From NCBI GenBank assembly GCA_028713675.1, contig JAQTNV010000016.1:54-64053 (forward strand): a DNA stretch of 64,000 nt, in the 5' to 3' direction. Source of the stretch: a bacterium (GTDB lineage: Bacteria; Desulfobacterota; JAPLJL01). Both the position numbers and the translations under genes were made by a program. The notes beneath the pieces are model-generated. The model saw only the letters and a list, made by a program, of their open reading frames with translations, was not told where the DNA came from and did not search any database. Shown here piece by piece: positions 31,555 through 62,668 of this stretch (position 1 is its first letter; each line of letters opens with the position of its first letter).

Positions 31555-31672
31555 TGGTTTATTCTGACCTACCGGGTCGATCCTGACCCCCTTTTTCAAA
31601 TCCCGGTTATTTCCATTCCTCGTCGGCAAACCATAAATACCTTCCCCGTAAAACCTTGGCACGGACCTTGCA
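31555..31672 (+). promoter_or_regulatory. Sigma-54 promoter with tandem enhancer sites
   Basis: TGGCACGGACCTTGCA at 31657-31672; GGGTC-GATCCT-GACCC at 31574-31589 and TGGTT-TATTCT-GACCT at 31555-31570. Confidence 0.8.
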
Positions 31673-31739
31673 ACTTAAAGATGACATGGGTGAAAAAATT
31701 CAGTTCAACCTGAACCAAAAAGGAAGAAGGAGAAATTTA

Positions 31740-32714
31740 ATGAACTCACTAAAAAACCAAAAAATGGGGAAGAATATCAGGCCTCTAATAATCGCTTTTG
31801 TTCTTCTGTTGGTTTCCCTTTATTCGGGACCGGTTCTTGCCGCCCCCCAAGGCGAATCCTGGCCTGCCGTTGGGAGCTTGCTTTCTGTAACCCCGTGTTC
31901 CGAATGCACTTACACAACCTGGAAAACAAGCAATACGGACAGAACCTTTATTAGTTCCACCCTTGACCCATCAAACTGGTGGTATTCCGATCTGGGAAAT
32001 ATTACCAATTGGAGTTGGGGGGACACCTTCATCACCAAGCTGGATTTCCTGTCGGAAAGTTCCGATGCCAACCACGCAGGATTCTATGCGGTAACGAGCA
32101 AGATTATTCAAGACGATGGAGGATATACTGTTTTCCCGGAGTCTACCCTTCGCCCCATCCCGATCCCTCAGGTTGTTGACACTAGAGAATCCGGAGAGGT
32201 TGATCTGTCCTGGTCCGCAGGGCAATCGGCGGGGGATGCAGATCTTATTACCGGATACCTGCTTTATTCATTTAAAACCACCGACGAAAATTATCAGCCC
32301 ACCGATAACGACACCTGGAATCAGGTCGATGAATTGATTACCGAAACCAGCCGTACCCTTACCGGTCTAGATTCTGAAAACACCTACTATTTCGCGCTTC
32401 GAATCGTTTATCCGGACGGTTTTTCCACCACCCATATTTCCGGGAATTCGGCGGCGGTGAGAGTAAATCCTCCCGCCCCTCTTATCCCCGATGTACCGGA
32501 GCTCAGTCTGTTTATTGAACCGATTAATGATCCCCCGGCGGATGAACCGTCCGCGAACGATCCTCAGCCATCCGATCCCTCGGTTGAAAGCCAGATAAAT
32601 CCGGATCTGGGCGGCGGAACTTTCCCCGGCCTGGGCGGCTGCGGCGCCGATGGCCACCTGGGGTTCGGGTTTCTTCCCCTCTTCGGAATATTCTTCCTGA
32701 AAAGAAAGAATTAA
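31740..32714 (+). CDS. Exported protein with an FN3-like domain, Pro/Asp linker and GC-CTERM-like sorting signal
   Basis: Start at 31740 behind GGAG and downstream of the sigma-54 promoter; signal peptide; C-terminus GLGGCGADGHLGFGFLPLFGIFFLKRKN. Confidence 0.8.
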   Translation: MNSLKNQKMGKNIRPLIIAFVLLLVSLYSGPVLAAPQGESWPAVGSLLSVTPCSECTYTTWKTSNTDRTFISSTLDPSNWWYSDLGNITNWSWGDTFITKLDFLSESSDANHAGFYAVTSKIIQDDGGYTVFPESTLRPIPIPQVVDTRESGEVDLSWSAGQSAGDADLITGYLLYSFKTTDENYQPTDNDTWNQVDELITETSRTLTGLDSENTYYFALRIVYPDGFSTTHISGNSAAVRVNPPAPLIPDVPELSLFIEPINDPPADEPSANDPQPSDPSVESQINPDLGGGTFPGLGGCGADGHLGFGFLPLFGIFFLKRKN

Positions 32715-32724
32715 GGAGGAAACC

Positions 32725-33255
32725 ATGTCAAAGAAAGATAAAATCTGCAAAATCTGTCTGATCTCATTCCTTACCCTGCTCGGGGTTGGCGGGATGACCA
32801 GCTTCGCCCTTTCGGAGGAGCCGGTCGCCATCCCGGCAACCGATCAGTCGCCGGAAAACATCAAAGCCGGCCCCGAGGGTTACCAGGCTCTGAACGAAAT
32901 CGGAGTTTATCTCGACCTTTTAAACAAAGTTGAGAACGAAAATCTTGCTCCGCTTGAGCAAACCGGTTCGGATCAGGAATCCCTGGACGTCAAATCATCC
33001 GAGTATCGTGGAGACGCCACCCTGGCCATCCTTAATGAACTCGCCTTCTATCTCGGATCGATAAAACGGATGGAAACCGCCGTCACGGGAGACACCAAAA
33101 GCTCGGGGGTAAAACCCGCGGCCGAACCGGAAAATACAACTCCAGAGGTTATCGAGATTTCCCGCGATCAGAATGGCGAACTGAATTATCTCAAGGTGGT
33201 CTGGGACAACCGGGACAACGAATCCGGCAATGAAAAAGATTCCTTTAATCAATAG
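32725..33255 (+). CDS. Hypothetical exported protein
   Basis: AGGAGG RBS, signal peptide, internal repeated ALNEIGVYL / ILNELAFYL helix. Confidence 0.7.
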   Translation: MSKKDKICKICLISFLTLLGVGGMTSFALSEEPVAIPATDQSPENIKAGPEGYQALNEIGVYLDLLNKVENENLAPLEQTGSDQESLDVKSSEYRGDATLAILNELAFYLGSIKRMETAVTGDTKSSGVKPAAEPENTTPEVIEISRDQNGELNYLKVVWDNRDNESGNEKDSFNQ

Positions 33256-33297
33256 GCGACCAAAACAAATCGAGCAGAAAATACAGGAGGGATAACC

Positions 33298-33930
33298 ATG
33301 AACCAGAATCTGCTAAATGTAATAATCGTAGATGATGACGAGCTGGTCGTAAAATCCCTCCAGCGTGTCCTCCAGAGTGAAAGCTATTACCTCTGGGCAA
33401 CCACTTCGGCGAAAAAAGCTCTTTCCTTGCTTGCTTCGCAGGAAACGGCAGTGATCGTTTCCGATCACCGCATGTCTGAAATGACCGGCATTGAACTTCT
33501 GGAGAAGGCGAAAAATATTTCCCCGGCCACCGTCCGAATCCTTTTGACCGGGTATGCCGACGTGGAGGTCGCCCAGGAATCGGTCAACCGCTGCGGGGTC
33601 TACAAATTATTGTTCAAACCGTGGAACGATCAGGAATTGAAAGGAACGATAATTTCCGCGATCGGTTTATTCAAACATTTAAAAGAAAAAAACCGGTTGG
33701 TCAACGAGTCTCAGTTACTGAACAAACGAAACCAGGAACTGACGGAATTAAATGTGTTTCTCCAGGATTCCGTGGATAAGGGAAAATTGCAGATTCAAAA
33801 GCTGACGGCGGAAAAACCGAGACCGGAAAATACCATGAATTTGAGGGCAACCCTGCCGCGGCCGGAAAGCATGCGCCATCAACCCGGTCCAAATTCCCAC
33901 GTTGACGATCGTCTTCTTTACTTGGGATAA
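33298..33930 (+). CDS. Response regulator (REC plus coiled coil)
   Basis: IIVDDDE, IVSDHRMSEMTG, LLTGYAD, KPW. Confidence 0.9.
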   Translation: MNQNLLNVIIVDDDELVVKSLQRVLQSESYYLWATTSAKKALSLLASQETAVIVSDHRMSEMTGIELLEKAKNISPATVRILLTGYADVEVAQESVNRCGVYKLLFKPWNDQELKGTIISAIGLFKHLKEKNRLVNESQLLNKRNQELTELNVFLQDSVDKGKLQIQKLTAEKPRPENTMNLRATLPRPESMRHQPGPNSHVDDRLLYLG

Positions 33931-35495: not shown

Positions 35496-35524
35496 CGTGT
35501 CCCTCCTAATCGCAAATTGCACAG

Positions 35525-35645: not shown

Positions 35646-35649
35646 CGTT

Positions 35650-39721: not shown

Positions 39722-41302
39722 TCACATCGCTTGTTCTTTCGCGTTTTCTTCCTCGAACTTTACCCCTGAGGACTTCATGATCCGGCGGAAATTGCTGCGG
39801 TCGAGCTCGGCCTTCCGGGCGGCCTCGGACATATTTCCGTCCGCCTGCGAAAGTAATCGGCCGAAATACACCTGGTGAAACCTGTCCAAGGCCTGGGACT
39901 TGGCTTCCTTGTAGCCCAGATTGACCAGTTCGCCCCACTCATCGTCTTTCCGCAGGGGCTTGAGCTCACGGCTCAGGATCGCGGGCGGAAGATCGGAGGG
40001 ATGAATCGTTTCCCCTTTTTGCACGATTACCGCGTGCTCAATCGCGCTCGCCAGCTCCCGAACGTTGCCGGGCCAGGGGTAATCCAGGATGATTTTCATC
40101 GCTTCGGGGGATATCTGCTTAAGTTCGGGACCGATTTTCCGGCAGGAGCGGGTTAAGAAATGACGGGTAAGAATGGGGATATCATCGACCCTTTCCCGGA
40201 GGGGGGGGAGATGAATGGTAACCACGCTCAACCGGTAGAAAAGGTCCTCCCGGAATTTCTTTTCCGCGACGGCCCGGGAAAGGTCCTTGTTACTGGCGGC
40301 GATAACCCGGACATCCACCTTGATGGATTCGTTCCCGCCAACCCGCCGGATTTCCCCTTCTTGGAGAGTCCGGAGCAGTTTGGCCTGGACCGTAAATGGT
40401 ATCTCGGCCACCTCATCCAGGAAAATCGTGCCCCCGTTAGCCGCCTCGAAAAATCCGGCCCGGCGGGTGTTGGCCCCGGTGAACGAGCCCTTTTCGTGGC
40501 CGAAAAGCTCGCTCTCGAAAAGGCTCTCAGTAATAGCGGAACAATTAAAGGGAATGAAGGGTTTGCTCTTTCTCGGGCTCAGGGAATGCAGGGCCTTGGC
40601 TACCAGCTCCTTACCCGTCCCGCTCTCACCCTGGATCAGAGCGGTGGTATCGGTGGCCGCCAGCCTCTCGGTCAACTGGTAGACCGGAAGCATTTTAGCG
40701 CTCTGCCCGATCAGGCCGGCGAATGATTCCGGCTTGCCCGCCTCCGCTTCGAGTTTCTGTGTTTTGAAGACCAGGGCGCGGTGCTCCAGGGCTTTTTCCA
40801 CCGAGATGTTCACTTTCTCGATCGGGTCGAAAGGCTTGGTCAGGAAATCGTAAGCCCCCAGGCGCACCGCCTCGACCGCCTGTTCCATTGTCCCGAAACC
40901 GGTCATCATGATCACCTCGATTTCGGGATACTGCAGTCGGACCCTCCGGAGCACCTCCATTCCCGAGGGTCCTGGCATTTTCAGATCAAGCAGGATCACG
41001 GAGACCCGGTCGGGATCGGCTTCCAAATATTTCAGGGCCTCGTCCCCCCTCCGGGCCAGTGTCACCTCGTGCCCGGATGAGGAAAGTACCAGGTTGATCA
41101 CCTTTAAAATGGCTTCCTCGTCGTCCACAACCAGAATGACAGGTTTCGAGTTTCGGCCTGCCCGAGCCGATGGCTCGTGTCGGCCAGGGGTTTCTGGTTT
41201 CGAGTTCAACTCGAGCACAGCCGAGAGGCTGGCCTTTTCCCTGTTGGTCTGTCCAACTGCTGATCTGTTGGACTGCTGGTCTTTAGTCATTTTTTCCATC
41301 AT
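39722..41302 (-). CDS. Sigma-54-dependent REC-AAA+-HTH activator (NtrC/AtoC family)
   Basis: GESGTGKELVA, ESELFGHEKGSFTGA, FLDEV, FREDLFYRL, WPGNVREL. Confidence 0.95.
   Translation of the reverse strand: MMEKMTKDQQSNRSAVGQTNREKASLSAVLELNSKPETPGRHEPSARAGRNSKPVILVVDDEEAILKVINLVLSSSGHEVTLARRGDEALKYLEADPDRVSVILLDLKMPGPSGMEVLRRVRLQYPEIEVIMMTGFGTMEQAVEAVRLGAYDFLTKPFDPIEKVNISVEKALEHRALVFKTQKLEAEAGKPESFAGLIGQSAKMLPVYQLTERLAATDTTALIQGESGTGKELVAKALHSLSPRKSKPFIPFNCSAITESLFESELFGHEKGSFTGANTRRAGFFEAANGGTIFLDEVAEIPFTVQAKLLRTLQEGEIRRVGGNESIKVDVRVIAASNKDLSRAVAEKKFREDLFYRLSVVTIHLPPLRERVDDIPILTRHFLTRSCRKIGPELKQISPEAMKIILDYPWPGNVRELASAIEHAVIVQKGETIHPSDLPPAILSRELKPLRKDDEWGELVNLGYKEAKSQALDRFHQVYFGRLLSQADGNMSEAARKAELDRSNFRRIMKSSGVKFEEENAKEQAM
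41157..41188 (-). mobile_element. 32-bp CCTGGCCG...CTCGGGCAGG micro-element inside the activator 5' coding region
   Basis: Minus strand aaacC[cctggccg acacgagccatcgg ctcgggcagg]Ccgaaac; 32+1 = 33 nt, which keeps the frame. Confidence 0.65.
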
Positions 41303-46632: not shown

Positions 46633-46635
46633 CCG

Positions 46636-49137: not shown

Positions 49138-49227
49138 TTCCCACCCCCAATCTGGTTTATCTGTTTTTTTTAGTTTCTTTAGTTTCTTTGGTTTTCATTC
49201 CGCAATCCGCATTCCGCAATTTATATG

Positions 49228-49343
49228 AGCAATGCTTGTGCCAGGTATAAATAGACTGGGTAAAAACTGTCACCGACGGTGATAATGTTTGATGGAGCCC
49301 TGACATCCGGGTCACAATTTACCCAGGGAGTCACAATCGACCC
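49228..49343 (-). promoter_or_regulatory. Sigma-54 promoter with tandem enhancer sites
   Basis: TGGCACAAGCATTGCT at 49243-49228; GGGTC-ACAATT-TACCC at 49309-49324 and GAGTC-ACAATC-GACCC at 49328-49343. Confidence 0.82.
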
Positions 49344-49349
49344 ATGCAA

Positions 49350-50165
49350 ACATCTGTTTCGGGTTTCTAGTTTCTGGTTTCGGATTGTCAGTTTCGAGTT
49401 TCTGGTTTCGAGTTTCGAGTTTTAAATCTAATTTATTAATCTGATTTTCTTGGTCTTTTTGGTTCATTTGAATCTTTTTGATTAACCGGAATCTAAAAAC
49501 AACTTTTTATTCCCTTGTTTTAACTAGAAAATAGAGACGAGAAACTCAAAACTTGGTTTTCCCTTCTTTTATTTCAACTCGAAACTGTCTTCATCGTTTT
49601 TATTCAGTACTTCTTTGTTGCCTTAAACCCGAAGCTGTTTTTATTGTCCGCTGAACAATCTCCACACCAGAACCGCCCCGATCGCCAAAGCAAAAAGGAC
49701 CGGATAAAGCACCTCCTTGCTGAAAATCTGCCTTTCCAACCTCCGGCGGCGGTGATGGCGCCTTCCGATTGCGGAATGCGGATTTCGGATTGCGGATTGG
49801 CTATTTGTTATTTCGGCCTGTCCGTTACCTTGATCAGTCAGGGATTGATCGTTCTCAATCGTTGAGGTGATTTCTTTGCTCTCCATCTGTTTTCTCCGGT
49901 TTTTTTAGTCTCTGATCTTGGGCCATTGTTAGCAAAGGGCATAGGGTTGAGAGCAAAGGGTTAAAGAACGAATCTGGATTCCCGCTCCCGCGGGAACGAC
50001 GTTATGATTTTTCATTCCGCATTCCGCAATCCGCAATTCCCTAGACCCCTCGAACCCTTTCTTCGCAAGGCTGAAGCCTTGCCCTACTTGAATTACGCAA
50101 CCTAAAGGTTGCGGCTACCAACTTTCTTCGTTTTTCATTCCGCAATCCGCATTCCGCAATCATCA
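49350..50165. repeat. About 0.8 kb repeat-rich intergenic region (TTTCGAG, AAACTCG and TCCGCAA arrays; REPs at 49974-50001, 50065-50087, 50097-50118)
   Basis: Direct reading of multiple arrays and hairpins. Confidence 0.85.
49641..49886 (-). CDS. Small putative membrane protein with repeat-derived segment
   Basis: GGAGA RBS; Arg-rich RRHHRRRR followed by one TM helix; SQSAIRNPHSA encoded by a TCCGCAA array. Confidence 0.45.
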   Translation of the reverse strand: MESKEITSTIENDQSLTDQGNGQAEITNSQSAIRNPHSAIGRRHHRRRRLERQIFSKEVLYPVLFALAIGAVLVWRLFSGQ

Positions 50166-52250
50166 ATTCTGTATGACTCTTTCGAGTGTTTCCTGCAGTT
50201 CCTTCACCGTATATGGCTTTACCATCACGCCGATAAATCCGTAATTTTTATAATTGGACATGAGGTCTTCGTCGGAATATCCGCTGGAAACGATCAATCT
50301 GGCCTTCGGATCAATTTCATTGATAATCCCGGCCGCTTCTTTTCCTCCCATTTTGCCCGGAACGGTCAGGTCCATGATCGCCGCGGCATAATTCTTTCCG
50401 CTTTCCTTCGCTTTTCGATACATTTCGATGGCCTCTTCCCCGCAGACGGCAAAATCAACCCGGTAATTCATGAAACCCAGCAGGCGGCCGAGGGTCTTCC
50501 TAATGCTCTCTTCGTCGTCCATCACCAGGACTTTGCCTTTCCCATTTTCAGTTTGGCCATCGCCCGGGCTGATCATTTCAACCCTGGCTTCTTCATCCGA
50601 AGCCAGGGCCGGCAGGTAAACCTCAAAGATGGTCCCTTCCCCCACTCTGGATCCAACATCTATATGCCCGCCGTGGTTCTTGATAATCGAGAAAGTGACC
50701 GCCAGCCCCAGCCCGCTCCCTTCTTTCTTGGTGGTGAAGTAAGGGTCGAATATCCTGGCCAGGTTTTGCTCGGGTATGCCCTCCCCCTCGTCCTTCACGG
50801 ATACCCTTACGTACCGGCCCGGTTTCAAATTCGGCGCCGATTCTTCGCCCGCGACAATATTCTCGCCCCGGATCTCGAGAATCCCTCCTTTATTCATGGC
50901 CTGCTTGGCGTTGATCACCAGGTTCTCGAAAACCTGGTAAATCTGCCCGGCATTGGCCTCGATGGGCCAGAGGTTGTCCGATATGACGAAACGAGGGGCG
51001 ACACTCGATCCGCTGAGAATAAAACCGGTCACCTCCCGCAGAAGGCCGGCCAGGGAGGTGAATTCCCGGGCCTGGTTCCCGCCCCGGGCGAAAAGCAGTA
51101 ACTGCCGGATCAGGTCCCGCGCCCGAAGCGAGGCCTGCTCGGCGTCCATGATCGGCTCCAGGGCTTCCTCTCCCGGCTTGATCATGTTCCGGGCAATGGA
51201 GATGTTGGCCATGATCCCGGTGAGGATGTTGTTGAAGTCATGCGCGATTCCCCCCGCCAACAGCGAAAGCGACTCGAGCTTGCTGGTTTTCAACAATTCC
51301 TTTTCCATCCGCCGATGGTCAGTAATATCAATAAAAGTCCCCTCAATTCCCCCCGACCGTTCGGGTACATCCTTTACCAGGTGGGCATTGGCCAGGGCCA
51401 CGAATTTTTCATTCGTGATTTTTTTAGCGTTTATCAGGTAGTTCTTGATCAATCCTTTGGCCTTGAATTCTTCCAAATATTGTTTCCGGTCATCCGGGTT
51501 TTGCCAGAAATCTGGCAGTTTTTCTCCCTTCAGATTTTTTTCAATATCGAAGCCGAGGATGCGATTGAACGCCTTGTTGTGCTCGAGCAAAACACCTTCC
51601 ATAGTGCAACGGTAATATGCTTCATCCATACGGGTAACGATTTCACGATACTTTTGTTCGCTATCCAGCAGTTCTTCCCCATGCTTTTTAATTTCGGTGA
51701 TATCGCGCTCGGTGGAGGCAATCGCGATTACTTTTCCCTCGTCGTCTACCAGTTTCGTTACCGTCAGCCAGACGTCTAACAAGCGCCCGTCTTTGGTCAA
51801 CCGCTGGGTCTCGAACGAGGAGACCTTTTCACCTGCAAAGATCCGGCGGGTAAATTCCTCTTGTTCTGCCACTTTAAGGGGTGAGGCGAGTTGCCATATT
51901 TTCATCTGTAGCGCCTCTTGTTCACTGTAACCAAACATCTGTTCGGCGCCGTGATTCCAGGCAAGGATCTTTCCTGCTGAATCTTGTATCGTAATCGCAT
52001 CATTCGAGTCACACACTACCGTAGCTAAGCGCCTTAGATCCCCACCTTTATTCAAGAATTCTAATGATTTATTAAGGTTTGCAATTCGGGCAAGATTCTC
52101 CAATTTAGTCAGACTCTTTCGCAAACCGGCTAATTCGTCTAGAAGCTCAGGCTTGGACATGTTTTTATCTTTGGGCATTGGGCAAAGATATTTCTTTCCC
52201 TTGGGTTTCAAGGATTTTTTCTTTGAGTGGGAGATTTTATTCTTTTTCAT
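50163..52250 (-). CDS. PAS-PAS hybrid histidine kinase with C-terminal REC
   Basis: GIAHDFNNILT, NLVINAKQAM, GSGLGL, VMDDE, MDLTVPG. Confidence 0.93.
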   Translation of the reverse strand: MKKNKISHSKKKSLKPKGKKYLCPMPKDKNMSKPELLDELAGLRKSLTKLENLARIANLNKSLEFLNKGGDLRRLATVVCDSNDAITIQDSAGKILAWNHGAEQMFGYSEQEALQMKIWQLASPLKVAEQEEFTRRIFAGEKVSSFETQRLTKDGRLLDVWLTVTKLVDDEGKVIAIASTERDITEIKKHGEELLDSEQKYREIVTRMDEAYYRCTMEGVLLEHNKAFNRILGFDIEKNLKGEKLPDFWQNPDDRKQYLEEFKAKGLIKNYLINAKKITNEKFVALANAHLVKDVPERSGGIEGTFIDITDHRRMEKELLKTSKLESLSLLAGGIAHDFNNILTGIMANISIARNMIKPGEEALEPIMDAEQASLRARDLIRQLLLFARGGNQAREFTSLAGLLREVTGFILSGSSVAPRFVISDNLWPIEANAGQIYQVFENLVINAKQAMNKGGILEIRGENIVAGEESAPNLKPGRYVRVSVKDEGEGIPEQNLARIFDPYFTTKKEGSGLGLAVTFSIIKNHGGHIDVGSRVGEGTIFEVYLPALASDEEARVEMISPGDGQTENGKGKVLVMDDEESIRKTLGRLLGFMNYRVDFAVCGEEAIEMYRKAKESGKNYAAAIMDLTVPGKMGGKEAAGIINEIDPKARLIVSSGYSDEDLMSNYKNYGFIGVMVKPYTVKELQETLERVIQN

Positions 52251-52306
52251 CCTGATAAAAATTTCTTTAATTACAGAGTATTTATTATATGTTTAAGGTA
52301 AATGCT

Positions 52307-52322
52307 TGCAAATATCATTCCA
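52307..52322 (-). promoter_or_regulatory. Possible sigma-54 promoter
   Basis: TGGAATGATATTTGCA, correct GG/GC spacing, 57 bp upstream of the kinase start; no enhancer motif seen. Confidence 0.4.
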
Positions 52323-52701
52323 TTCAGTATCGATTATATATAACATATTAATTTTTATAAATAAATTATATATATTTATTTATATTATAAATCATTTAAT
52401 TAATAAAAAAAAACAACAGAAATTCCTGAATAATTCCATATAATTATCAATGATTTCAATATGTTATATTTATATTGATGAAATTTTCAACAGGTATAGC
52501 AAAATCATATAGGATTAGATGTTAAATTCGGATTAGGGGCCGATTGAGGAGTGAAAAATAGGTAGCCGGCAGCCAATGACAAGTAGCCGGCAAACAAAGG
52601 AAATCAGGATAATGATTGGAACAGATCTGATTTTAGAGAGAATGGGGCTTATTATTTCTTTTCGTAGTGCGACTTTTTAGGGTAGATCCTTTGAACTCTA
52701 T

Positions 52702-54051
52702 TTATTCGAACTTGTATTTTTTCAATTTATAAACGAGCGTGGTGCGATGTATACCCAGGTTCTTCGCGGCTAGGGATTTGTTGTTTTTGCACATCTTAAG
52801 AACATTTTGAATGTGTGCCTTTTCCGAACCTTCTAAGGATAAATCGGCTTTCCCGGTGGAAATTTCCCGGCTACTTACTCTCTTTCTGACCTCTTCGGGT
52901 AGATGTCCGGCCTGGATAACCCCTTCCGAGCAAATCAAGACCGCCCGCTCGATAATATTTCGCAATTCCCTGATATTCCCCGGCCAGTAATAAGAATGCA
53001 ATAAAACTTCCGCCTCTTCGGAAATTCCCGAAACGTTATGTTTGAGGGACCGGTTGAATTCCTCCAGCATGATCCGGGCTAATGGCAGGATATCTTCCCG
53101 CCTCTCCCGGAGCGGCGGAAGCCGGAGCGGCATTACCTTCAAGCGATAATAAAGATCTTCGCGGAACTTCTTCTCCTTGACCATTTCATCTAAGTCGATG
53201 TTGGAGGCGGCCATGATCCTGACATCCGCGTTGATATTTACCACCCCCCCGAGCCGCCGGAAGGACTTTTCCTCGATTACCTTGAGAAGCTTGGCCTGGA
53301 CGGAAAGCGAAAGATCCCCGATCTCGTCCAGAAAAACGCTTCCCCCGGCGGCCACTTCCAGGAGGCCGCGCTTCTGGCTTCTGGCATCGGTGAAAGCCCC
53401 GGCTTCATGGCCGAAAAGCTCGGATTCCAGCAGGTTCTCACTCAGGCCCGCGCAGTTGAGGTCCACGAAGGCTCTTTCCCGCCGATCGCTTAAATCATGG
53501 ATAATCCGGGAAATCATTCCTTTCCCGGTTCCCGTTTCCCCCAGGATTAATACGTTCACGGAGGATTTTTCGGAAAGTAATTTGATGCCACGGTAAATCT
53601 CCTCGGGCTGGCGGAGTTTAGAATATGTTTCCTTGCCTTCCAGCTTGGAAAGCTTTTCCCGGAGATACTGAGCCTCTATGCGCCGGGCGTAATTTTCCAG
53701 GCAGTTATTCACAATCACCAGCAGGGAAGCCAGCTCGATCGGCTTGAGGACGAAATTGTCCGCTTTCAGCTTGATCGCTTCGACCGCGGTTCTCACGTCC
53801 CCGTAGGCGGTAATGATAATCACCGCCTGGCCCGGAGAAATAGCCTTGATCTGCGACAATACTTCGAGCCCGGACAGGTCAGGAAGCTTGAGATCCAGAA
53901 GGACGATGTCTACGTGCCGGCTCCGGCAAATCTCGATGCCGCTTTTCCCATCGGCGGCGGTTTCGACGTTGAACCCCTGGGAGACGAAATACGTCTTCAG
54001 GTTCCGGCGGATGGAATCTTCATCGTCAACGATCAGAATGGTGTTGATCAT
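52702..54051 (-). CDS. Sigma-54-dependent REC-AAA+-HTH activator (AtoC-like)
   Basis: GETGTGKG, ESELFGHEAGAFTDA, FLDEIG, FREDLYYRL, WPGNIREL, Fis-type HTH. Confidence 0.95.
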   Translation of the reverse strand: MINTILIVDDEDSIRRNLKTYFVSQGFNVETAADGKSGIEICRSRHVDIVLLDLKLPDLSGLEVLSQIKAISPGQAVIIITAYGDVRTAVEAIKLKADNFVLKPIELASLLVIVNNCLENYARRIEAQYLREKLSKLEGKETYSKLRQPEEIYRGIKLLSEKSSVNVLILGETGTGKGMISRIIHDLSDRRERAFVDLNCAGLSENLLESELFGHEAGAFTDARSQKRGLLEVAAGGSVFLDEIGDLSLSVQAKLLKVIEEKSFRRLGGVVNINADVRIMAASNIDLDEMVKEKKFREDLYYRLKVMPLRLPPLRERREDILPLARIMLEEFNRSLKHNVSGISEEAEVLLHSYYWPGNIRELRNIIERAVLICSEGVIQAGHLPEEVRKRVSSREISTGKADLSLEGSEKAHIQNVLKMCKNNKSLAAKNLGIHRTTLVYKLKKYKFE

Positions 54052-54255
54052 ATGAATGCTCGTTTCGAGTTTCGGGTTTCGAGTTTCGAGTTCAGATTAA
54101 ACCCAATAATATTCAAATAACAGAGGCCATGAGTTCGAAACATCGTTTGTAATTTATTAGTCATATGAATGCTCGTCTCGAGTTTCGAGTTTCGAGTTTC
54201 GAGTTCAGATTAAACCCAAAAATAATCAAAAAACAGAAGTTATGAGTACGAAACC
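54049..54255. repeat. 113-bp-period tandem duplication containing a heptamer array and the start-codon context
   Basis: catatgaatgctcg...gagttcagattaaaccca...gag..cgaaac occurs at 54049 and at 54162. Confidence 0.9.
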
Positions 54256-54645
54256 TCATTTGTACTTGTTACCTTTTATTTCAGATCTCCGCAAATAATT
54301 CATCAAGCCGCCAGCCAATTTCCCCACTTCAGTTACCTTAACAAATAGCTGGTTAAAAGAATCCTGATTCAGATAACCCTGATCAAGGGCAACATAGAGT
54401 TGGCTTTTAACTTCACCGCTAGAACCTTTCGAAACGGAGAGAAATTGGATGAATTCCTTGGTCCCACCTCTCTCGAAACCTTCGGCTATGTTTGAAGTAA
54501 TTGAAACACAAGCTTTTCTCAATTGCTCTCGCAAACCGATATCTCTGTTGAATTTGCCTATATTTGACAAGGCGTAAATTTCATTGGTAAGTTCCCGACC
54601 TTTCTGCCAGGCTTCAATATCTTCGAAACATTTAAAGGTCGCCAT
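54256..54645 (-). CDS. Four helix bundle protein (23S rRNA IVS-protein / Avd-like family)
   Basis: FEDIEAWQKGREL, LREQLRKACVSITSNIAEGFERGGTKEFIQFLSVSKGSSGEVKSQL. Confidence 0.93.
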   Translation of the reverse strand: MATFKCFEDIEAWQKGRELTNEIYALSNIGKFNRDIGLREQLRKACVSITSNIAEGFERGGTKEFIQFLSVSKGSSGEVKSQLYVALDQGYLNQDSFNQLFVKVTEVGKLAGGLMNYLRRSEIKGNKYK

Positions 54646-54669
54646 CTTCTTTCTCCCTTCTTCCTTATT

Positions 54670-54767
54670 AGTTTCGGGTTTGTAGTTTCTAGTTTCTGGT
54701 TAAAAACTTTAAAACATTTATCATCTCTTTTATTTAACTCGAAACTCGAAACCCGAAACTCGAAACT
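54670..54767. repeat. Inverted heptamer arrays upstream of the four-helix-bundle gene
   Basis: agtttcgggtttgtagtttctagtttctggtt, AT-rich spacer, aactcgaaactcgaaacccgaaactcgaaact. Confidence 0.9.
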
Positions 54768-57700
54768 ATTTTATCGGTAGCTCCACGATAAACTTCGCTC
54801 CTTTTCCCGGTTCTGACTCCACCCGGATGTCGCCGCCGTGATCCAGGATGATCCGCCGGGAGATCGCAAGGCCCATTCCGTAGCTCCCCTTTTTGGTGGT
54901 GAAGAAAATCTCGAATATCTTATCCTTCATCTCCTTCGGAATCCCCGGGCCCATGTCCTTCATCGAGACAATCAGCGTTTTTCTCTTTTCGTCGGCCCTG
55001 GCTTCGATCTCGATGACATCCCCCTTCCCGGAAACCTCGATGGCGTTCTGCAAAAGGTTGATAAACACCTGGATCATCTCGCCCTTTTCCACCATCACCG
55101 GAGGCAAGTCCGGCGGCATCTTCTTTTCGACCTTTATTCCATTGACCTTCATTAATCCCGAATTCAGGGAAGCAACCTCATCCACGACTTCCCGCATGTC
55201 TACGGGGGCGAAAGCAATCTCGTTCAGAGCGCGATGGCGGCCGTAATCCAGAAGCTGTCTGACCAGGTAATCCATCCGGATGGTTTCCCTCAAAATAATT
55301 TCCAGGGTTTCTTTCTGAGCGCCCCCCAGTTTCAGGTGGTCGTGCAGGATCTCAATCCCGCTGGAAATCGCGAAAAGCGGGTTTTTGATCTCGTGAGCGA
55401 TATTACCGGCGATTTCCCCGATGGCGGCCATTCTCTCGGATTCCTTCAACCGTTTTTGGAGCTTTTTCTCCTCAGTGATATCGCGGGTCACATGGATCAC
55501 CCCATAACACTTATTTGCCGCGTTGAACATCGGGGTAGTCGTAATCAGGTAATCTCTCTGCAATCTCTCCGAGCGGACCATGTAGTTGCAGGATTTTCCC
55601 TCGGAAATACACCGCGATTGTCGGCAATATTCCGGGGGCGCGTCGGTCTTATGAATAAGGCGAAAGCATTGCTGTCCGATGATCTCGGGAAAGGAAAGCC
55701 CCAAAAAATCCGCCAGGGCCTGGTTGGCGCGGAGGATCCGGTAATTCAGGTCCTGCACCATGATCATATCGGGAATAGAGTCGAAAGTGATTCTCCAGGC
55801 GGTGGAGGCGTTTTTGATCATTTCCTCGGCTTGGATCTGTTCGGTAACGTCATGCAGGATCATCCCCAGTCCATCTCCTACCTTGAAAATGTCTATACAA
55901 ACGTATCTAAATTCCCCCATTGATACAGATATTTTCTGCCTCGACCGGTGAAAAGGCTTTCCCGTTTTCAATACATCCAGGTATTTGTCGAGCATATCGG
56001 AATCCCGAATCGTGGGAGAAACTTCGGTTAATTTTTTCCCGATCGCTTCCCGGCGGGAAAAGCGTTCGGCCAGCTCCGGGGATAGTGCCCGGTTGAAATC
56101 GACCAGGTTCAAATCCTGATCGAAAATATAGAAAAGGTCCGTCGCGGCGCAGGAAAAACGGCTCCATCGTTCCGTGATCACCTTTTTTTCCTCCTGAAGC
56201 CTTTTTAGCTCGGTGATGTCGACCACCGCGCCTTCAATGTGTTCCGTCCCCGGTATCATCTTGACCGAATAATTGACCCAGATTGGCGAGCCGTCGGCCT
56301 TTACCCCCCTGGCCTCGTAACCCGTGATCTCGCCGCTTTCTTTCAGTTTCCTGAGCAATCGTCTCTGATCGTCCAGATCGTTAAAATGCCGGGCCACCGA
56401 ATAATCCCGCAGGCATTCTTCCCGGCTTTTATAGCCGAGCATTCCGGCGAACCGCTCGTTGCATTCGATCACCTGCCCGTCGGTAATCCGGGTCCGGTAC
56501 AAGCCCACCTGTGCGTTATGGAAAAAGTTTCGATACTTCTCTTCGCTCAACCTTAGCTTATCTTCCGCCTGCTTAAGATCGGTGATGTCCTGCATAGTGC
56601 CAACAATCCGGTATGGGTGGCTTGATTGGTTACGGTATGCGACTGCGTGCTGGTTAATATGCTTGATCGTACCATCCGGCAGAAGAAGCCGAAACTGGAT
56701 TTCGGCATGATCTTCTTTTTCTAAAAGCAGATTGATAAAAGAATTGTTTTTATTCCGATCATCTGGATGAATCAAAGCCACGATACCATCGAAGGTGAGT
56801 GGTATTTCCCGGCCTAACCCGAACATTTGATATACCGTCTCAGACCAAGTCAATTTGTTGCCTTCAACATCCCAATCCCAGTTCCCGAGTTTGGCGATAT
56901 CCTGGGCCTGGACCAATTTATTTTCGTTCTCCTTTAGTATTTCCTCCGCCCGCTTGCGCTCGGTGATGTCGCGGGAAAAAACAAAAAGTCGGCCGCCGCT
57001 GATATCCATGAAATTGACGCTGATTTCGAAATCTATAATTTTTCCGTCTTTATGGCGGAGTTTGGTTTCAAAACGATCCCCTCCCGTTGCGATGATTTTT
57101 CTGATGCGAGCGCCGGTTTCTTCCGGTTTTTCCTCAACCACGATATCCGAAATCTTCATTCTCAGAAGTTCGCTACGGCTGTAACCAAGCATGCGGGAGC
57201 AGGCGTCGTTCGCCTCTTGAATATTTCCCTGCAGATCGTCAATCCAAAATCCGTCTATCGAAGTGTCAAGAATGGCCTTATATATCTCCTCGCTTTGGCG
57301 GAGACTATTTTCGGCCCGTTTCCGCTCGCCGATATCCCGGGCCAGGCTCAAAACCGATACCACCCGGCCGTCTTCAAAAATCGGTACCGCGTTTATTTCC
57401 ATTTCAATGATTTTGCCCTGGGAGTTTCGGGTCTTCAGATTCAGGCCATAAATCGGATGGCCCTGGCGCAGTTCATCAGCGAGGCGAATCAACTCTTCCT
57501 GGTTGTCTCCGGCAAAGTAATCCAGGTAACTCTTCTTTTTGAGCTCCTCGAGCGACACACCCAGAATTTTGAGCACCGCGGGATTCGCATCCAGAAAATT
57601 CCCATTCACATCATTGATGCAAATGAAATCCGGGCTGTTGTTGAAAATAAAGCGATATCTTTCCTCGCTTAGCCTCAGTCTCTCGGCAATGTTCTTTTGC

Positions 57701-57859: not shown

Positions 57860-58190
57860 TCTGGTCTATGAATGGCATAGGGCAAAGGGCATGGCGCAAA
57901 GAGCAGGGAGCATGGCGCAGGGAGCATGGCGCATATGATTTAACCCCAAACCAGAAACCTGGATTCCTGCTTTCCTTCGACCATACTCATGACAAGTCGC
58001 AGGAATAACTTTATAATTTTTCATTCGTCAGATTTTTGGGGCTCACTCGTCATTCGTCAATCGTCACTTCTTCTTCGGTTTTCATTCGTCATTCGTCAAT
58101 TCTTTTTTGTTTTTCATTCCGCAATCTACAATCCGCAATCCGCAATTCTTTCTAACTCGAAACTCGAAACTAGAGACTCGAAACTAGTAT
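57860..58190. repeat. Intergenic repeat block, paralogous to 46305-46420
   Basis: gggagcatggcgca arrays, ctggattcctgcttTC[57975-57996]TCgcagg, tcgtcat/tcgtcaa, tccgcaa and aaactcg arrays. Confidence 0.85.
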
Positions 58191-58277
58191 TACCCTGCCG
58201 ATTTCATAAAACTGGCAGATATAGGTGCCACAGGGAATATTGTCGACGATGCTTATCCCGAATTTTCTCATTTTCAT
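58170..58277 (-). pseudogene. Truncated N-terminus of a MEDS sensory domain
   Basis: MKMRKFGISIVDNIPCGTYICQFYE resembles the MEDS start R.SGI..IG..PWGTHFCQFY, then runs into a heptamer array and stops. Confidence 0.6.
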
Positions 58278-58411: not shown

Positions 58412-59713
58412 TTACCTCGGCTCGTCGGCGACCGTGATCTCGATCGATCCGGAATCGGCTCCGCCTTTGCCGTCGTTCACTACCACCTGAATGGTGTATA
58501 CTCCGGCGGCATCCGGGGCCTGCCATTCGATCACGCTCTCATCAGAAAGAGAAAGCATCCCGCCGTCGGTTTTCCAATAATAGGTCAGATAATCCTGATC
58601 CGGATCGGCGGCCTGAACCGCGACTTTCACGGTAGCTCCCAGGCCAACCTCGCTTTCGAAGGTGACGGAATCGATCACGGGAGGCATGTTATCAACCCGA
58701 AAATCGCCGACCTGGACCGTCGGTCCGTCGTTTTCGTCAACCGTGACGGTGATTGATTCCATCAGGTTACCGTTCTCGTCCACGAAAATACCCAGGGCCT
58801 GGCTGGCAAACCGCAGTTGGTATTCCCCCGGCAAAATGAAGGGGATCCGGAAGTTACCTTCGCGGTCAACGGTACCCGGCAGACCGGAAGTCTGGTTGGA
58901 GTTTTTCAGGAAAACCAGGGTCGGATGGGACTCGCCCAGAAGATTAACCCCGGAGAGCGGGGTTTCTCCGTCACGGAAGAAAATCCGGCCGGTCACAGTA
59001 TTGTAGGTATGATCCACCTGGGGAACCATCTGGACGGGATATTCGAGCGTCAGGGTCTGTCCGGTCTGAACCTCAAGCCCGGGAATCGTCACATCCTCAA
59101 AACCGGGGGCATATATCCGAAGCGTGACTTGGCCGGGAACCATTCCGAATACCGAGAAGTCCCCGTTTATATTAACGTAGCTGACCGGGGAGCGGAACCC
59201 GCATTCACTCTCGGCGTAGATTACGGCTTCTTGGAGCGGGGCGCCTGAAACAGCATTCGTCACCCGTCCCTGGATAGTGCCGTTAACATCAACCTTGCAC
59301 TCAATCTGATAATCAACCTGGTTCCATTTTCCTCCATCCCACTGAAAGCCGACCTTCAAGATTCCGATCATGGGGCCGTTGATCTCGTCATTGTAGACAA
59401 AAGCATAAATAATATTTCCGGCGGGGGGATCCACATCATAATCGGTTTCGGTTTTCATCTCACTGATCCAGAAAGTAATATTGGCGCCGGTATCAGTATT
59501 GACCATTGGATTGATCGAAGCTGATTGGGCTCCCAGGAGATTCTGTTCCGAACAGGTCCCAGCCTGGGCCGCACGGGCCAAAAGGCTCTGAATCTCGACA
59601 TTTTCCGGGGCCGCCAACTTTAAATCGGCCATATTCACACCGTTGTTTCCGCAGCCGACCGCGGTCAGGCCGAACAGTACCGCCGCCACGAAGAATTCTT
59701 TCAGGTTTTTCAT
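58412..59713 (-). CDS. Lipoprotein with carboxypeptidase-regulatory-like and Ig/PKD-like domains
   Basis: GAGGAG RBS; lipobox LTAVGC; GTIQGRVTNAVSGAPL; NMPPVIDSV...ADPDQDYLTYYW...YTIQVVVNDGKGG. Confidence 0.85.
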   Translation of the reverse strand: MKNLKEFFVAAVLFGLTAVGCGNNGVNMADLKLAAPENVEIQSLLARAAQAGTCSEQNLLGAQSASINPMVNTDTGANITFWISEMKTETDYDVDPPAGNIIYAFVYNDEINGPMIGILKVGFQWDGGKWNQVDYQIECKVDVNGTIQGRVTNAVSGAPLQEAVIYAESECGFRSPVSYVNINGDFSVFGMVPGQVTLRIYAPGFEDVTIPGLEVQTGQTLTLEYPVQMVPQVDHTYNTVTGRIFFRDGETPLSGVNLLGESHPTLVFLKNSNQTSGLPGTVDREGNFRIPFILPGEYQLRFASQALGIFVDENGNLMESITVTVDENDGPTVQVGDFRVDNMPPVIDSVTFESEVGLGATVKVAVQAADPDQDYLTYYWKTDGGMLSLSDESVIEWQAPDAAGVYTIQVVVNDGKGGADSGSIEITVADEPR

Positions 59714-59784
59714 CTTTGCTTCTCCTCTTTTTGTTTGATGTTTTTTCATCCTTTTAAACGCTTTCGCTGCCGCATTATTAGAAA

Positions 59785-59928
59785 TGCATGAACCGTGCCA
59801 CGGTTTGAAAATACCGCGATATCTTTGGTTTTACCGTCGGTGCGGATGCAATATTGGTACCCTGTTCAGGTCCAATCCCGCGGGTTGATTTTGTGGTTCT
59901 TTTTGACCCTGAGGGGTGGAACAAACCG
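59785..59928 (-). promoter_or_regulatory. Sigma-54 promoter with enhancer site
   Basis: TGGCACGGTTCATGCA at 59800-59785; TGGTT-CTTTTT-GACCC at 59894-59909, with a weaker site 19 bp further on. Confidence 0.72.
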
Positions 59929-60003
59929 GGGCCAATTAAATTGCGGATTTTTGATTGCGGATTGCGGATTGAAATTCAAAGCCATGGAACCGGGGGTCCG
60001 AGG
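59883..60003 (+). repeat. 121-bp direct repeat, copy 1
   Basis: Near-identical to 62623-62743. Confidence 0.92.
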
Positions 60004-60076
60004 GAAACCTGCGTGTTTCAGGTTTAAAGTTTCAAGTCAAAAGAAAAGGAGCGGCATTTGACGGCCGCCCGATAAA

Positions 60077-60132
60077 GGGAGCCCGCGGCCTGCCCGAGCC
60101 GGGCAAATCCGGCCAGGGAGGGGCTCCCCTAC
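60077..60132 (-). repeat. GTAG REP carrying a 29-bp CCTG...CAGG micro-element (60089-60117)
   Basis: Minus strand gtaggggagcccctC[cctggccg gatttgcccgg ctcgggcagg]Ccgcgggctccc. Confidence 0.75.
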
Positions 60133-60203
60133 TCCAGTCTCTGATTTTGATTTTGAACCCGAAACCCGAAACTAGAAACCCGAAACCATTGAAAGCAACG
60201 CTT

Positions 60204-61199
60204 TCAATGAACTGGTTTGGGAGCTGCCGCCGGCTTCCGACAAGTCGAGCAAACAAAATTGCCCCGCAGCTCGCGGTTCCCGTTTTCCCCCTTAACAGTC
60301 AGGTCCAGAACCATGGGTTTTCCGCAATCGGTGCATCGGTAACCCTGGTCGATACCCAGGGTCTGGGCCAAGCTGGGGGCATCGAGCACGGTTTCGATGA
60401 TTTCGATCCGGAAATGCCGCTCCGGGGTCTTCTTCAATAAGGTCTGGACCTTCGAAATCATCTCATCAAGGTTGGCTTTTCCCTTCACCAGGAAATCATT
60501 GGCCCCCATGAGCATGGCTTTTTTAACCTCTTCGGGCTGGTCATGAGCCGAAACCACGAGGATCGGGATCCTGGTGGTGAGTGAATCCGCCCTGATCTTC
60601 CAGATCGCCTCGTAGCCTTTCATCTTGGGAAGCATCAGATCCATGATGATGAGATCGGGTTTATGCTTTTTCAGGATTTCCATCCCTTCCTCCCCATCGG
60701 CGGCGATCCGGACGATAAAATTTCCCTGTTCCAGAACTTTCCGGTAGAGCTCCGAAAAAAAACTGTCGTCTTCGAAAACCAGGATTTCCGGGGTTTTCTT
60801 TTCTTCCGATTCCTCCACTCCCCGGCCCTGGTAGAGAAGCTCCTTGATCTTGGCGACCACTTCATTCAGCCTCGATTTCCCCTTCACCAGGTAGGCATCG
60901 GCTCCCATACCCTTTACTTTCTGGATGTCCTCAAACTGGTCCCGGGCCGAGAGAACCAGGATCGGCACCCGGGCGAACCGCGCGTCCGCCCGGATTCGAT
61001 GAATGGCTTCCACCCCGTTCATCCCGGGCATCATCAGATCCATGAGAATCAGGTCGGGCCGGGACGTTTCCAGGGACTGCAGACACTCTTCCCCTCCGGT
61101 AACCATCCGTACCTCTAATTTTTCCATATCAAATTTCCTCTGATAAATTTCGCGGGTATACTGGTTATCTTCCACCATCAGGATTCTCGCCATTTTCAT
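60204..61199 (-). CDS. Tandem REC-REC response regulator with C-terminal CxxC...CxxC zinc-ribbon-like motif
   Basis: LMDLMMP and IMDLMLP phosphoacceptors; CTDC...CSTC. Confidence 0.9.
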   Translation of the reverse strand: MKMARILMVEDNQYTREIYQRKFDMEKLEVRMVTGGEECLQSLETSRPDLILMDLMMPGMNGVEAIHRIRADARFARVPILVLSARDQFEDIQKVKGMGADAYLVKGKSRLNEVVAKIKELLYQGRGVEESEEKKTPEILVFEDDSFFSELYRKVLEQGNFIVRIAADGEEGMEILKKHKPDLIIMDLMLPKMKGYEAIWKIRADSLTTRIPILVVSAHDQPEEVKKAMLMGANDFLVKGKANLDEMISKVQTLLKKTPERHFRIEIIETVLDAPSLAQTLGIDQGYRCTDCGKPMVLDLTVKGENGNRELRGNFVCSTCRKPAAAPKPVH

Positions 61200-61205
61200 T
61201 CTCCT

Positions 61206-62489
61206 TTAGTTTAGGGGAGGAGCCGGGGAACGGGACGGGAGATCCCCGGTGTTTTCCGCCCGGTTTTCCGCGCTGGAAAAAATAAAATCCACCGGCAGTT
61301 CTACGGTAAACGTGCTGCCGGCCCCGGGCCGGCTCTCCACACTGATCCGTCCATTCAATAGCCGGACATAGTCTTTCACGATGGCCAGTCCCAGCCCCAA
61401 CCCTTTTTCCGCCTGTTCCGCCTGGTTATCAACCCGGTAAAATTTATTGAAAATTAACGGCAATTCCTTCTCCGCGATCCCGATCCCGGTATCGGAGACC
61501 GCGGCCACCACCCCGCTGGAATCCAGGCTGGGTGCGGCCAGTATCTCGATCCCGCCTTTGCGGGTGTATTTGACCGCGTTGGAGAGAAGATTGATTAATA
61601 TATATTTAACCCGGTTCGGATCGGTCGTAATCAAGGGGGTTTTCTCATTATATTTAATTTCGATCCCGAGCCCCTTCAGCTGCGCCAGGGGTTGGACCAG
61701 GGGGAGCACTTCCTGGATAAGGCTTTTCAGATTGATCTCGGCCAGGTCGCTCTTTTCGATCTTGCCTTGTTCCAGGCGGGAGGAATGTAAAAGGTAATCC
61801 AGCATTTCCCCGATTTCATTGGTATTGATATCCATTTTTCCCAGAACTTGGCCGACTTCCTCCGAGATTTCGCCGAACGCGTTTTCCCGGAGCAGGGAGA
61901 TGTACCCCGAGATGGCATTAACCGGGGTACGGACCTCGTGAGAAATGATGTTTAGAAGCTCCTTCTGAAACCCGACCGCGATCTCCAGTCTTTGATTGGC
62001 GAGCCTGAAGTCCAGGGTCCGTTCCTCCACCGATTCTTCCAGCCGGGCGTTGATTTCCTTCAGGGAGAGATTTTTTTCCTCAATCAGCCGCAAAAGTTCG
62101 CGGTTGTGGCTAACCAGTTCGTAATTTTTCCAGGCGCCCCTGACCGAACTTCTCAGATCCGCGTTTTCCCAGGGTTTGATGATAAATTTATCCACCCTGC
62201 CCCGGTTGACCGCCTGCTCGACAATCCCAAAATCCTGGTTGCCGCTCATGACCATCCGGACCGTATCGGGGGAAATGGCTTTGATTTTCTCGAGAAGCTC
62301 CACCCCGTTAGCCCCGTTCATGGTGTAGTCGGTGATAATCAGGAAAATCGGTGTCCCGTCGAACCGGGCGACCGCCTCGTCCGGGCCGGCGGCCGTGATA
62401 ATTTCATAGCCGTCGGCAGCCAGGGTCCGGCCCAGGACTTTCAGGATCTGCGGATCGTCGTCAACTATAAGAATGATCGGGTTACCCAT
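61206..62489 (-). CDS. REC-histidine kinase
   Basis: LIVDDD, ITDYTM, KPW; ISHEVRTP; NLLSNAVKY; GLGLGL. Confidence 0.93.
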   Translation of the reverse strand: MGNPIILIVDDDPQILKVLGRTLAADGYEIITAAGPDEAVARFDGTPIFLIITDYTMNGANGVELLEKIKAISPDTVRMVMSGNQDFGIVEQAVNRGRVDKFIIKPWENADLRSSVRGAWKNYELVSHNRELLRLIEEKNLSLKEINARLEESVEERTLDFRLANQRLEIAVGFQKELLNIISHEVRTPVNAISGYISLLRENAFGEISEEVGQVLGKMDINTNEIGEMLDYLLHSSRLEQGKIEKSDLAEINLKSLIQEVLPLVQPLAQLKGLGIEIKYNEKTPLITTDPNRVKYILINLLSNAVKYTRKGGIEILAAPSLDSSGVVAAVSDTGIGIAEKELPLIFNKFYRVDNQAEQAEKGLGLGLAIVKDYVRLLNGRISVESRPGAGSTFTVELPVDFIFSSAENRAENTGDLPSRSPAPPLN

Positions 62490-62524
62490 GATTCTCTCCT
62501 TTTTTTCTCCTCATTTATACAGGA

Positions 62525-62668
62525 AGCAAGAAGAGGGCCAAGGAGCGGAAATAACGCGGAATATTTGTATTCGCCGTCGGCGCTGCAGAAACATTGGTTC
62601 CTCATCCGGGTACGATTCTTCTGGTTGATTTTGTGGTTCTTTTTGACCCTGAGGGATGAAATATACCG
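62525..62668 (-). promoter_or_regulatory. Sigma-54 promoter with enhancer site
   Basis: TGGCCCTCTTCTTGCT at 62540-62525; TGGTT-CTTTTT-GACCC at 62634-62649, the same 94-bp spacing as at 59.8 kb. Confidence 0.72.

Follow-up and report, generated by a model that had tools for sequence, protein, structure and literature searches.

Are the enhancer-dependent promoters of a signalling-rich island in an uncultured bacterium governed together, and by which of the activators encoded among them? The question is raised by a stretch of 64,000 nucleotides (contig JAQTNV010000016.1 of assembly GCA_028713675.1; the whole stretch is called the window, and positions are counted from its first letter), which belongs to an uncultured lineage of landfill and sediment known from landfill metagenomes. 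A previous sequence-only reading had described positions 31555-62668 as a local sigma-54 regulon, in which four promoters share one palindromic enhancer. As judged from sequence, the window probably holds a local sigma-54 regulon of five three-part modules, each composed of a tandem enhancer, a CCGWCGG box and a sigma-54 box, with EBP1, one of two activators (EBP1 and EBP2) encoded in the island, as its activator. Loci of relatives are given by L-numbers where they have to be told apart.

Sigma-54 (-24/-12) promoters were called where GG and GC lay 10 bp apart within a TGGCAC-N5-TTGCW-like sequence upstream of a gene. Five were found in the window, at 19946 (+), 31657 (+), 49243 (-), 59800 (-) and 62540 (-), and were named P5, P1, P2, P3 and P4, respectively:

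19946-19961, plus strand: sigma-54 box of P5, TGGCACGGGGCTTGCA, perfect, with an ortholog in L097.
31657-31672, plus strand: sigma-54 box of P1, TGGCACGGACCTTGCA, by direct reading, with aligned orthologs.
49228-49243, minus strand: sigma-54 box of P2, TGGCACAAGCATTGCT, by direct reading.
59785-59800, minus strand: sigma-54 box of P3, TGGCACGGTTCATGCA, by direct reading, with an ortholog in L105.
62525-62540, minus strand: sigma-54 box of P4, TGGCCCTCTTCTTGCT, the weakest of the five.

The four boxes claimed before (P1 to P4) are thus all present on direct reading, and the regulon grows from four promoters to five with P5, which lies outside the range 31555-62668 considered then. A search of the 64 kb for TGGC-N7-TTGCW gave 4 matches, P5 among them, where 0.86 were expected; one of the five promoters falls outside these matches, its -12 element being ATGCA. 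Across the modules the box has the general form TGGCAC-N5-WTGC, and start codons follow 36-83 bp downstream of all five boxes. TGGCAC and TGC are kept by P1, P2, P3 and P5 in every relative found, and the number of relative sequences obtained for P4 was zero. The candidate sequence GGGTCGGTTTTGACCT at 16881 was rejected for its position within a coding region, and GGGTTTAATCTGAACT at 54104 and 54217 was rejected as the recurrent head of heptamer arrays with no sigma-54 box after it. A comparison of positions 19000-64000 with Rfam gave no match, and a search for RNA runs containing this DNA came back empty.

Upstream of each box lies a pair of palindromic sites:

19844-19879, plus strand: enhancer of P5, with distal site GGGTGTATTTTTCACCC at 19844-19860 (spacer longer by one base) and proximal site GGGTTATTTATGACCC at 19864-19879.
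31555-31589, plus strand: enhancer of P1, with distal site TGGTTTATTCTGACCT at 31555-31570 and proximal site GGGTCGATCCTGACCC at 31574-31589, offset by 19 bp.
49309-49343, minus strand: enhancer of P2, with distal site GGGTCGATTGTGACTC at 49343-49328 and proximal site GGGTAAATTGTGACCC at 49324-49309, offset by 19 bp.
59894-59928, minus strand: enhancer of P3, with proximal site GGGTCAAAAAGAACCA at 59909-59894 and degenerate distal site CGGTTTGTTCCACCCC at 59928-59913.
62634-62668, minus strand: enhancer of P4, with proximal site GGGTCAAAAAGAACCA at 62649-62634 and a degenerate distal site at 62668-62653.

The motif had been given as GGGTC-N6-GACCC. This form is perfect at the proximal site of P1 (31574) and has one mismatch at each P2 site, but the consensus is better written as GGGT-N8-ACCC, a 16-bp imperfect palindrome, which fits P3 and P4 better: their common proximal site is weak against the longer form and has a single mismatch to the shorter one. 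Sites stand in tandem at all five promoters with an offset of 19 bp (at 19844/19864, 20 bp by the left halves). The paired 16-bp sites described at 31555/31574 and 49309/49328 were recovered with this offset, the proximal sites ending 67 bp (P1) and 65 bp (P2) before TGGC, as was the site upstream of 59800 and 62540, ending 93 bp before TGGC, with its weaker partner 19 bp further upstream. Exact GGGT-N8-ACCC occurs three times in the 64 kb, each time ending 65-67 bp upstream of a sigma-54 box. The sites have the features of upstream activating sequences: they are dyad-symmetric, two or more in number, located upstream of -24 and specifically tied to these promoters.

A scoring matrix was built solely from the sites of relatives and used to scan both strands of the window (128,000 positions). 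Ranks 1-7 were taken by seven enhancer sites of the five promoters, the proximal site of P5 being the top match.

When the five promoters were aligned on TGGC, a third element appeared that is absent from the earlier description. CGWCGG lies 28-33 bp upstream of every TGGC (5/5 promoters), extended to CCGWCGG in 4/5, and together with its flanks it reads as the palindrome (TCN)CCGWCGG(NGA):

19909-19915, plus strand: CCGTCGG box of P5, 30 bp upstream of TGGC.
31621-31626, plus strand: CGTCGG box of P1 (TCGTCGG), 30 bp upstream of TGGC, with TTTCCATTCCTCGTCGG invariant in the aligned orthologs.
49270-49282, minus strand: box of P2, TCACCGTCGGTGA, a perfect 13-bp palindrome whose CGTCGG core stops 29 bp short of TGGC.
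59834-59840, minus strand: CCGACGG box of P3, preceded at 53 bp by the proximal enhancer site and followed at 33 bp by TGGC.
62574-62580, minus strand: CCGACGG box of P4, 33 bp upstream of TGGC.

The central base of the box is A or T (the L105 ortholog of P3 reads CACCGTCGGTG), a variation expected for the centre of a dyad. The distance from the end of the proximal enhancer site to the box is 28-31 bp in P1, P2, P5 and a module present only in relatives, and 52-53 bp in P3 and P4, whereas from box to promoter it stays at 28-33 bp; the box is therefore keyed to the promoter and not to the enhancer. An interpretation of CGTC as the -10 element of an ECF-type promoter was rejected because of the A/T alternation of the central base in orthologs and the lack of a -35 element at a fixed distance.

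Co-occurrence was assessed with a composite pattern (matrix score >=12, located 20-59 bp upstream of CGWCGG, itself 27-34 bp upstream of [TC]GGC-N8-TGC). The window contains five instances of it; 200 first-order Markov simulations produced none. The co-occurrence of the elements is non-random.

Conservation was followed in relatives by an exact-pattern scan of metagenomes, which returned 17 loci. Seven of these come from relatives and carry nine modules, namely orthologs of P1, P2 (L096) and P5 (L097) and a further module ahead of a 169-aa gene; the other 10, mostly in DNA that is rich in GC and apparently coding, were dismissed on inspection as chance matches. Two proteins of the window were also looked up by exact match, and no contig was returned. 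At six orthologous P1 loci, conservation begins sharply at the distal site and stops at the -12 box, both flanks being unalignable, and the protein encoded downstream is only 46-59% identical. The near-invariant stretches are the distal site (GGTTTATTCTGACCT), CCGGGT..ATC.TGACCCCCTT, TTTCCATTCCTCGTCGG and AAAACC.TGGCAC...CC.TGCA; the distal site is invariant but for its first base and the proximal site is mostly invariant. The P2 ortholog in L096 has the sites GGGTCAATATCAACCC and GGGTAAATTGTGACCC, both P5 sites, the distal one included, are conserved in L097, and in the P3 ortholog of L105, TGGTTATTTCTGACCC and GGGTTCGAAAGAACCT are offset by 19 bp and the -24/-12 region is identical, the distal site being better than that of P3 in the window. 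The proteins encoded downstream of P1 and P3 have few homologues (46-59% identity), which lie on syntenic contigs, one of them in NCBI assembly GCA_026388655.1, filed as 'Proteobacteria bacterium'.

The module ahead of the 169-aa gene (L081, L089, L104) is non-homologous to the others and has all three parts. It shows tandem sites, CCGTCGG and TGGCACGGCCCTTGCA, at positions 5760-5860 of L081 and also in L089, L090, L102 and L104. Separately, intergenic tandem arrays of 7-mers (ATTGCGG/CCGCAAT, AACTCGA, GGTTTCT, GACGAAT and others) are dense in this lineage, located in the window at 31140-31540, 49130-50200, 54050-54790 and 57930-58200 and seen also in L081, L086, L096 and L105; the arrays vary across orthologous loci, and the promoter modules between them are constant.

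One explanation of these data without any common regulator is that a promoter cassette was copied to new genes, or that the smaller motifs arose by chance. Copying does occur, since P3 and P4 are clearly duplicated and modules can evidently spread in this way. Yet P1, P2, P5 and the extra module of the relatives share no alignable sequence outside the three elements, the elements are the invariant parts within each orthologous group, and the composite pattern never appeared in the simulations, so that this explanation is barely credible.

The duplication itself is evident from a near-identical direct repeat of about 120 bp (59883-60003 and 62623-62743), within which the enhancer pairs of both promoters lie. 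Past the repeat, in the downstream direction, P3 and P4 are alignable and much more diverged, with CCGACGG and the spacing of box and promoter kept. P3 and P4 are one recently duplicated module and no independent instances. Contigs from landfill over 59650-62800 represent co-occurring related strains and yielded no usable promoter variants. In runs X1 and X3, landfill contigs join 62504 to 62630, 125 bp with the P4 core promoter being skipped or replaced, which points to a difference at the P4 promoter in a co-occurring related strain.

As to the protein that would bind the enhancer, the island encodes two sigma-54 activators with GSFTGA and GAFTDA loops, just as the sequence-only reading had stated:

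39722-41302, minus strand: EBP1, NtrC-family response-regulator activator with GSFTGA loop and a divergent Fis-type helix-turn-helix (HTH), ELDRSNFRRIMKSSGV.
52702-54051, minus strand: EBP2, NtrC-family activator with GAFTDA loop and canonical HTH_8.

Both consist of an N-terminal receiver, a sigma-54-interaction AAA+ domain with a GAFTGA-type loop, an AAA lid and a C-terminal Fis-type HTH. The latter was recognized in EBP2 by HTH_8 (4.6e-13); the C-terminus of EBP1 had no Pfam match at 1e-3, yet in an alignment with HTH_8-positive homologues it matches their HTH column by column (GNMSEAARKAELDRSNFRRIMK). GSFTGA and GAFTDA both appear in a list, for D. vulgaris, of loop variants with which activator function is expected to be retained (PMC4641369), and both proteins look competent.

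A scan of genome contigs with the EBP1 protein was swamped by generic AAA+ motifs and gave distant, paralogue-level matches (<=44% over the full match, <=50% in the best segment), which were used as outgroup only. At these outgroup loci, CGWCGG stands at a comparable distance in 1 and the enhancer motif in none of 9 strong sigma-54 boxes. A search limited to the DNA-binding region of EBP1 led to a more distant protein (65% identical overall) on L106, a 19.6-kb contig whose gene order mirrors the P2 operon. The recognition helix LDRSNFRRIMKSSG is identical between EBP1 and this activator. L106 has three sigma-54 boxes: one at ~15750 (-), ahead of a PilZ gene, is preceded by tandem GGGTC-N6-(G/A)CCCC-type sites (offset 21 bp, 64 bp from -24), one at 1869 (+) by a weaker tandem pair (offset 19 bp, ~110 bp upstream), and one at 14010 (-) by a single palindrome. 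CGWCGG is absent from all of them, while a CCGWCGG box stands 28-33 bp upstream of -24 in every strong sigma-54 promoter found in the clade of the window; on the loci compared, the box is confined to a narrower clade than the enhancer type. The enhancer type thus seems to travel with the EBP1-type DNA-binding domain, and for this reason EBP1 is favoured as binder of the GGGT-N8-ACCC sites, the likelier of the two though unproven. Between EBP1 and its L081 ortholog, 96% of the sequence is identical, the DNA-binding domain entirely so.

The competing assignment gives the GGGT-N8-ACCC sites to EBP2; expressed constitutively from a promoter of sigma-70 type, this activator would drive a cascade onto the surface genes and the EBP1 operon, with no autoregulation. 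The EBP2 operon (PAS kinase, Avd-like protein, EBP2) is preceded by a sigma-70-like promoter at 58339-58312 and appears sigma-70-driven, which would solve the bootstrapping of the system; it lies directly downstream of the P3 target gene, an order kept in L105; and EBP2 has the textbook Fis-type HTH and a loop on the list of functional variants. Set against this are its recognition helix, which differs by four substitutions between the window and the L105 ortholog (84% identical overall) while the same assembly (L083, L105) retains the enhancer motif, and L106, which holds the motif type beside an EBP1-type protein with no EBP2-like gene visible on its 19.6 kb. We regard the assignment to EBP2 as unlikely.

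Two observations were made beside the EBP2 gene. Between the Avd-like gene and EBP2, at 54060-54250 (-), a segment of ~110 bp ending in 'gagcattcatATG' is tandemly duplicated, so that the real translation start of EBP2 is preceded by a short decoy copy. From EBP2 to the next kinase gene extends an extremely AT-rich spacer of 450 bp (52251-52701) with several sigma-70-like hexamer pairs and TGGAATGATATTTGCA at 52322 (-); this TGGAAT-N5-TTGCA sequence was rejected as a promoter, given the base composition of the spacer and the lack of an enhancer or CCGWCGG box.

It is also conceivable that an activator encoded elsewhere in the genome recognises the enhancer, the local pair serving other targets and their proximity being a coincidence in a signalling-rich island. 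Dozens of activators are often found in such bacteria (D. vulgaris, for example, is reported to have 37; PMC4641369). However, all five modules and both activators lie within 43 kb, the synteny of module and EBP1 is kept in the relatives and in L106, and the EBP1 operon is itself headed by one module, which makes an outside activator very unlikely. EBP1 remains the preferred binder.

The protein bound by the CCGWCGG box is a separate matter. The position of the box matches that of IHF sites in classical sigma-54 promoters, and the IHF consensus WATCARNNNNTTR had no match at <=1 mismatch on either strand in any of the five modules, which do not conform to the IHF-assisted type. A literature search on the motif returned only primer sequences. 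Most likely the box is the site of a dimeric accessory or bending protein by which the loop is helped or gated. A more far-reaching proposal, which we consider distinctly unlikely, is that sigma-54 promoters of this lineage have in (TCN)CCGWCGG(NGA) a new core element of their own, bound either by EBP2 in a two-activator logic gate or by an undescribed dimeric factor replacing IHF.

The genes under the promoters are as follows. P5 precedes a 144-aa exported acidic protein (20014-20448). P1 precedes a protein with signal peptide, FN3-like region and C-terminal membrane anchor (31740-32714), a small secreted acidic protein (32725-33255), whose gene, the one that in relatives is the 169-aa gene with the extra module, starts 10 bp after the preceding gene and is without its own promoter in the window, and a receiver with coiled coil (33298-33930). 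P2 heads a co-directional minus-strand string of ~15 kb, from 49137 down to 34395, which comprises a receiver, a REC-GAF kinase, a PAS hybrid kinase, a further receiver, EBP1, a methyl-accepting chemotaxis protein (MCP), CheW, CheA and a REC-HD-GYP protein; no strong intergenic terminator was found in it before 33963-33941. P3 precedes a lipoprotein with CarboxypepD_reg and PKD/Big_9 domains (59713-58412), ended by a strong terminator at 58374-58349. P4 precedes a REC-histidine kinase (62489-61206) and a double receiver (61199-60204), with a terminator at 60070-60049. Besides the MCP-CheW-CheA-REC/HD-GYP set, the island encodes many PAS, GAF and hybrid kinases and receivers. The EBP2 operon and an operon for an adhesin and a C25 protease have sigma-70-like promoters instead.

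Several side observations concern these genes. The tail of the double receiver (60204-60406, minus strand) is zinc-ribbon-like (CxxC...CxxC; DYRCADCGKP...FVCSSCRKP in the L105 ortholog), and this region has 88% nucleotide identity in L105 (positions 1-203). Upstream of the P2 enhancer, an 81-aa open reading frame (ORF; 49641-49886, minus strand) contains an in-frame CCGCAAT-type heptamer array and a C-terminal hydrophobic segment, its region being 86% identical in L096. At 30832-30996 (-), a conserved 54-aa gene (MSEKKLKK...GICAPAPPGKVVVGLCSMLNS), preceded by the sigma-70-like promoter at 31133-31105, heads the operon of an S24-like peptidase, the giant adhesin and the C25 protease; homologues are small genes in L081 (3512-3676) and L086 (6618-6785), and the product might be a precursor peptide. 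The plus-strand ORFs 20558-21208 and 21303-21767 were discarded, as they look non-coding on translation.

The sequence-only reading had proposed that one activator binds the palindrome and couples surface-protein genes to signalling genes. The core of this proposal, a local sigma-54 regulon in which one enhancer motif joins the two groups of genes, is strongly upheld by the statistics and by orthologous conservation, and the identity of the binder is, as set out above, a matter of inference. In the mechanism that we propose, with binder, looping, start sites, operon extents and phosphodonor all predicted, EBP1 would receive its phosphate from the Che-like module or from one of the many kinases encoded nearby, and phosphorylated EBP1 would occupy the tandem palindromes as two adjacent dimers and then assemble into an active ring. 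The ring would open sigma-54 closed complexes by DNA looping, the loop being shaped or gated by the factor bound at the CCGWCGG box. The outputs would be exported and surface proteins (31740-33255, 20014-20448 and 59713-58412) together with further signalling proteins. As the P2 operon includes EBP1, both EBP1 and the sensory apparatus would be under positive feedback. Such autoregulatory feedback, which had been raised as a possibility before, is plausible: the P2 string contains EBP1 without a strong internal terminator, and the arrangement is kept in the more distant relative.

Several points weigh against a regulon under EBP1. P3 and P4 are duplicates of each other, their distal sites at 59928 and 62668 match poorly, and their enhancers lie 93 bp from the promoter, compared with 65-67 bp elsewhere. 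At 75-91% nucleotide identity in genes, the relatives are close, and conservation partly reflects shared ancestry. The assignment of EBP1 draws on co-occurrence on a single more distant contig and on its relative conservation, and an EBP1 made from the promoter that it activates would need basal expression or a second activator.

For this uncultured landfill and sediment lineage, the analysis provides a compact regulon, which would tie a dense signalling island (hybrid kinases, Che-like module, HD-GYP protein) to exported and surface proteins and for which base-level predictions are given: a tandem operator of 35 bp, five promoters and a candidate activator. Its architecture is that of textbook enhancer-dependent transcription, and in this respect it is of moderate general interest. 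New insight could come from the CCGWCGG box, the unexplained feature of the regulon; a second potentially instructive point is the enhancer module visibly copied from P3 onto another operon at P4.

Among known systems, NorR at norVW, with three GT-N7-AC inverted repeats and IHF (PMC2831303), resembles the modules in its inverted repeats with a GT...AC core, clustered ~70-120 bp upstream of -24/-12, and in a further protein site (here putative) between enhancer and promoter. The modules differ from it by an N8 in place of an N7 core (GT-N8-AC in all strong sites, so that they are not of the NorR type), by two sites at a fixed 19-bp offset instead of three, by a receiver domain on the activator where NorR has a GAF domain, and by an intervening element that is the GC-rich palindrome CCGWCGG and not an IHF site. 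PrsK/PrsR places sorted PEP-CTERM surface proteins under a sigma-54 activator, with TTTACA in PrsR motif 1 (PMC1569441). Common to both systems are an NtrC-type response regulator, a repeated upstream motif followed by a ~60-bp spacer and a sigma-54 box, and exported, C-terminally anchored surface proteins of sediment bacteria as targets. In contrast to PrsR, the enhancer motif of the window is unrelated to motif 1 and feedback on signalling genes is predicted; the two activators score 393 and 361 bits against the PrsR class (TIGR02915; cut-off 502.6) and thus fall outside it, and PEP-CTERM models gave no match with the target proteins.

The chemosensory system Che3 of Myxococcus xanthus, with the NtrC-like output CrdA (PMC3147164), shares the placement of an MCP-CheW-CheA module beside a response-regulator sigma-54 activator, and the analogy suggests a chemosensory-like pathway with transcriptional output. 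Unlike Che3, the cluster is without CheB or CheR and has an HD-GYP-type receiver protein and several hybrid kinases; the targets and binding site of CrdA are not comparable, and phosphotransfer to EBP1 is putative. At qrr1 of Vibrio fischeri, the two activators LuxO and SypG act on one sigma-54 promoter (PMC10162802). The island likewise encodes two NtrC-family activators near each other, and two distinct conserved elements lie upstream of each of its promoters, but the CCGWCGG box, at ~30 bp from -24, is unusually close for an enhancer. In its overall design the regulon is of the classical multi-site enhancer type, already known from such systems.

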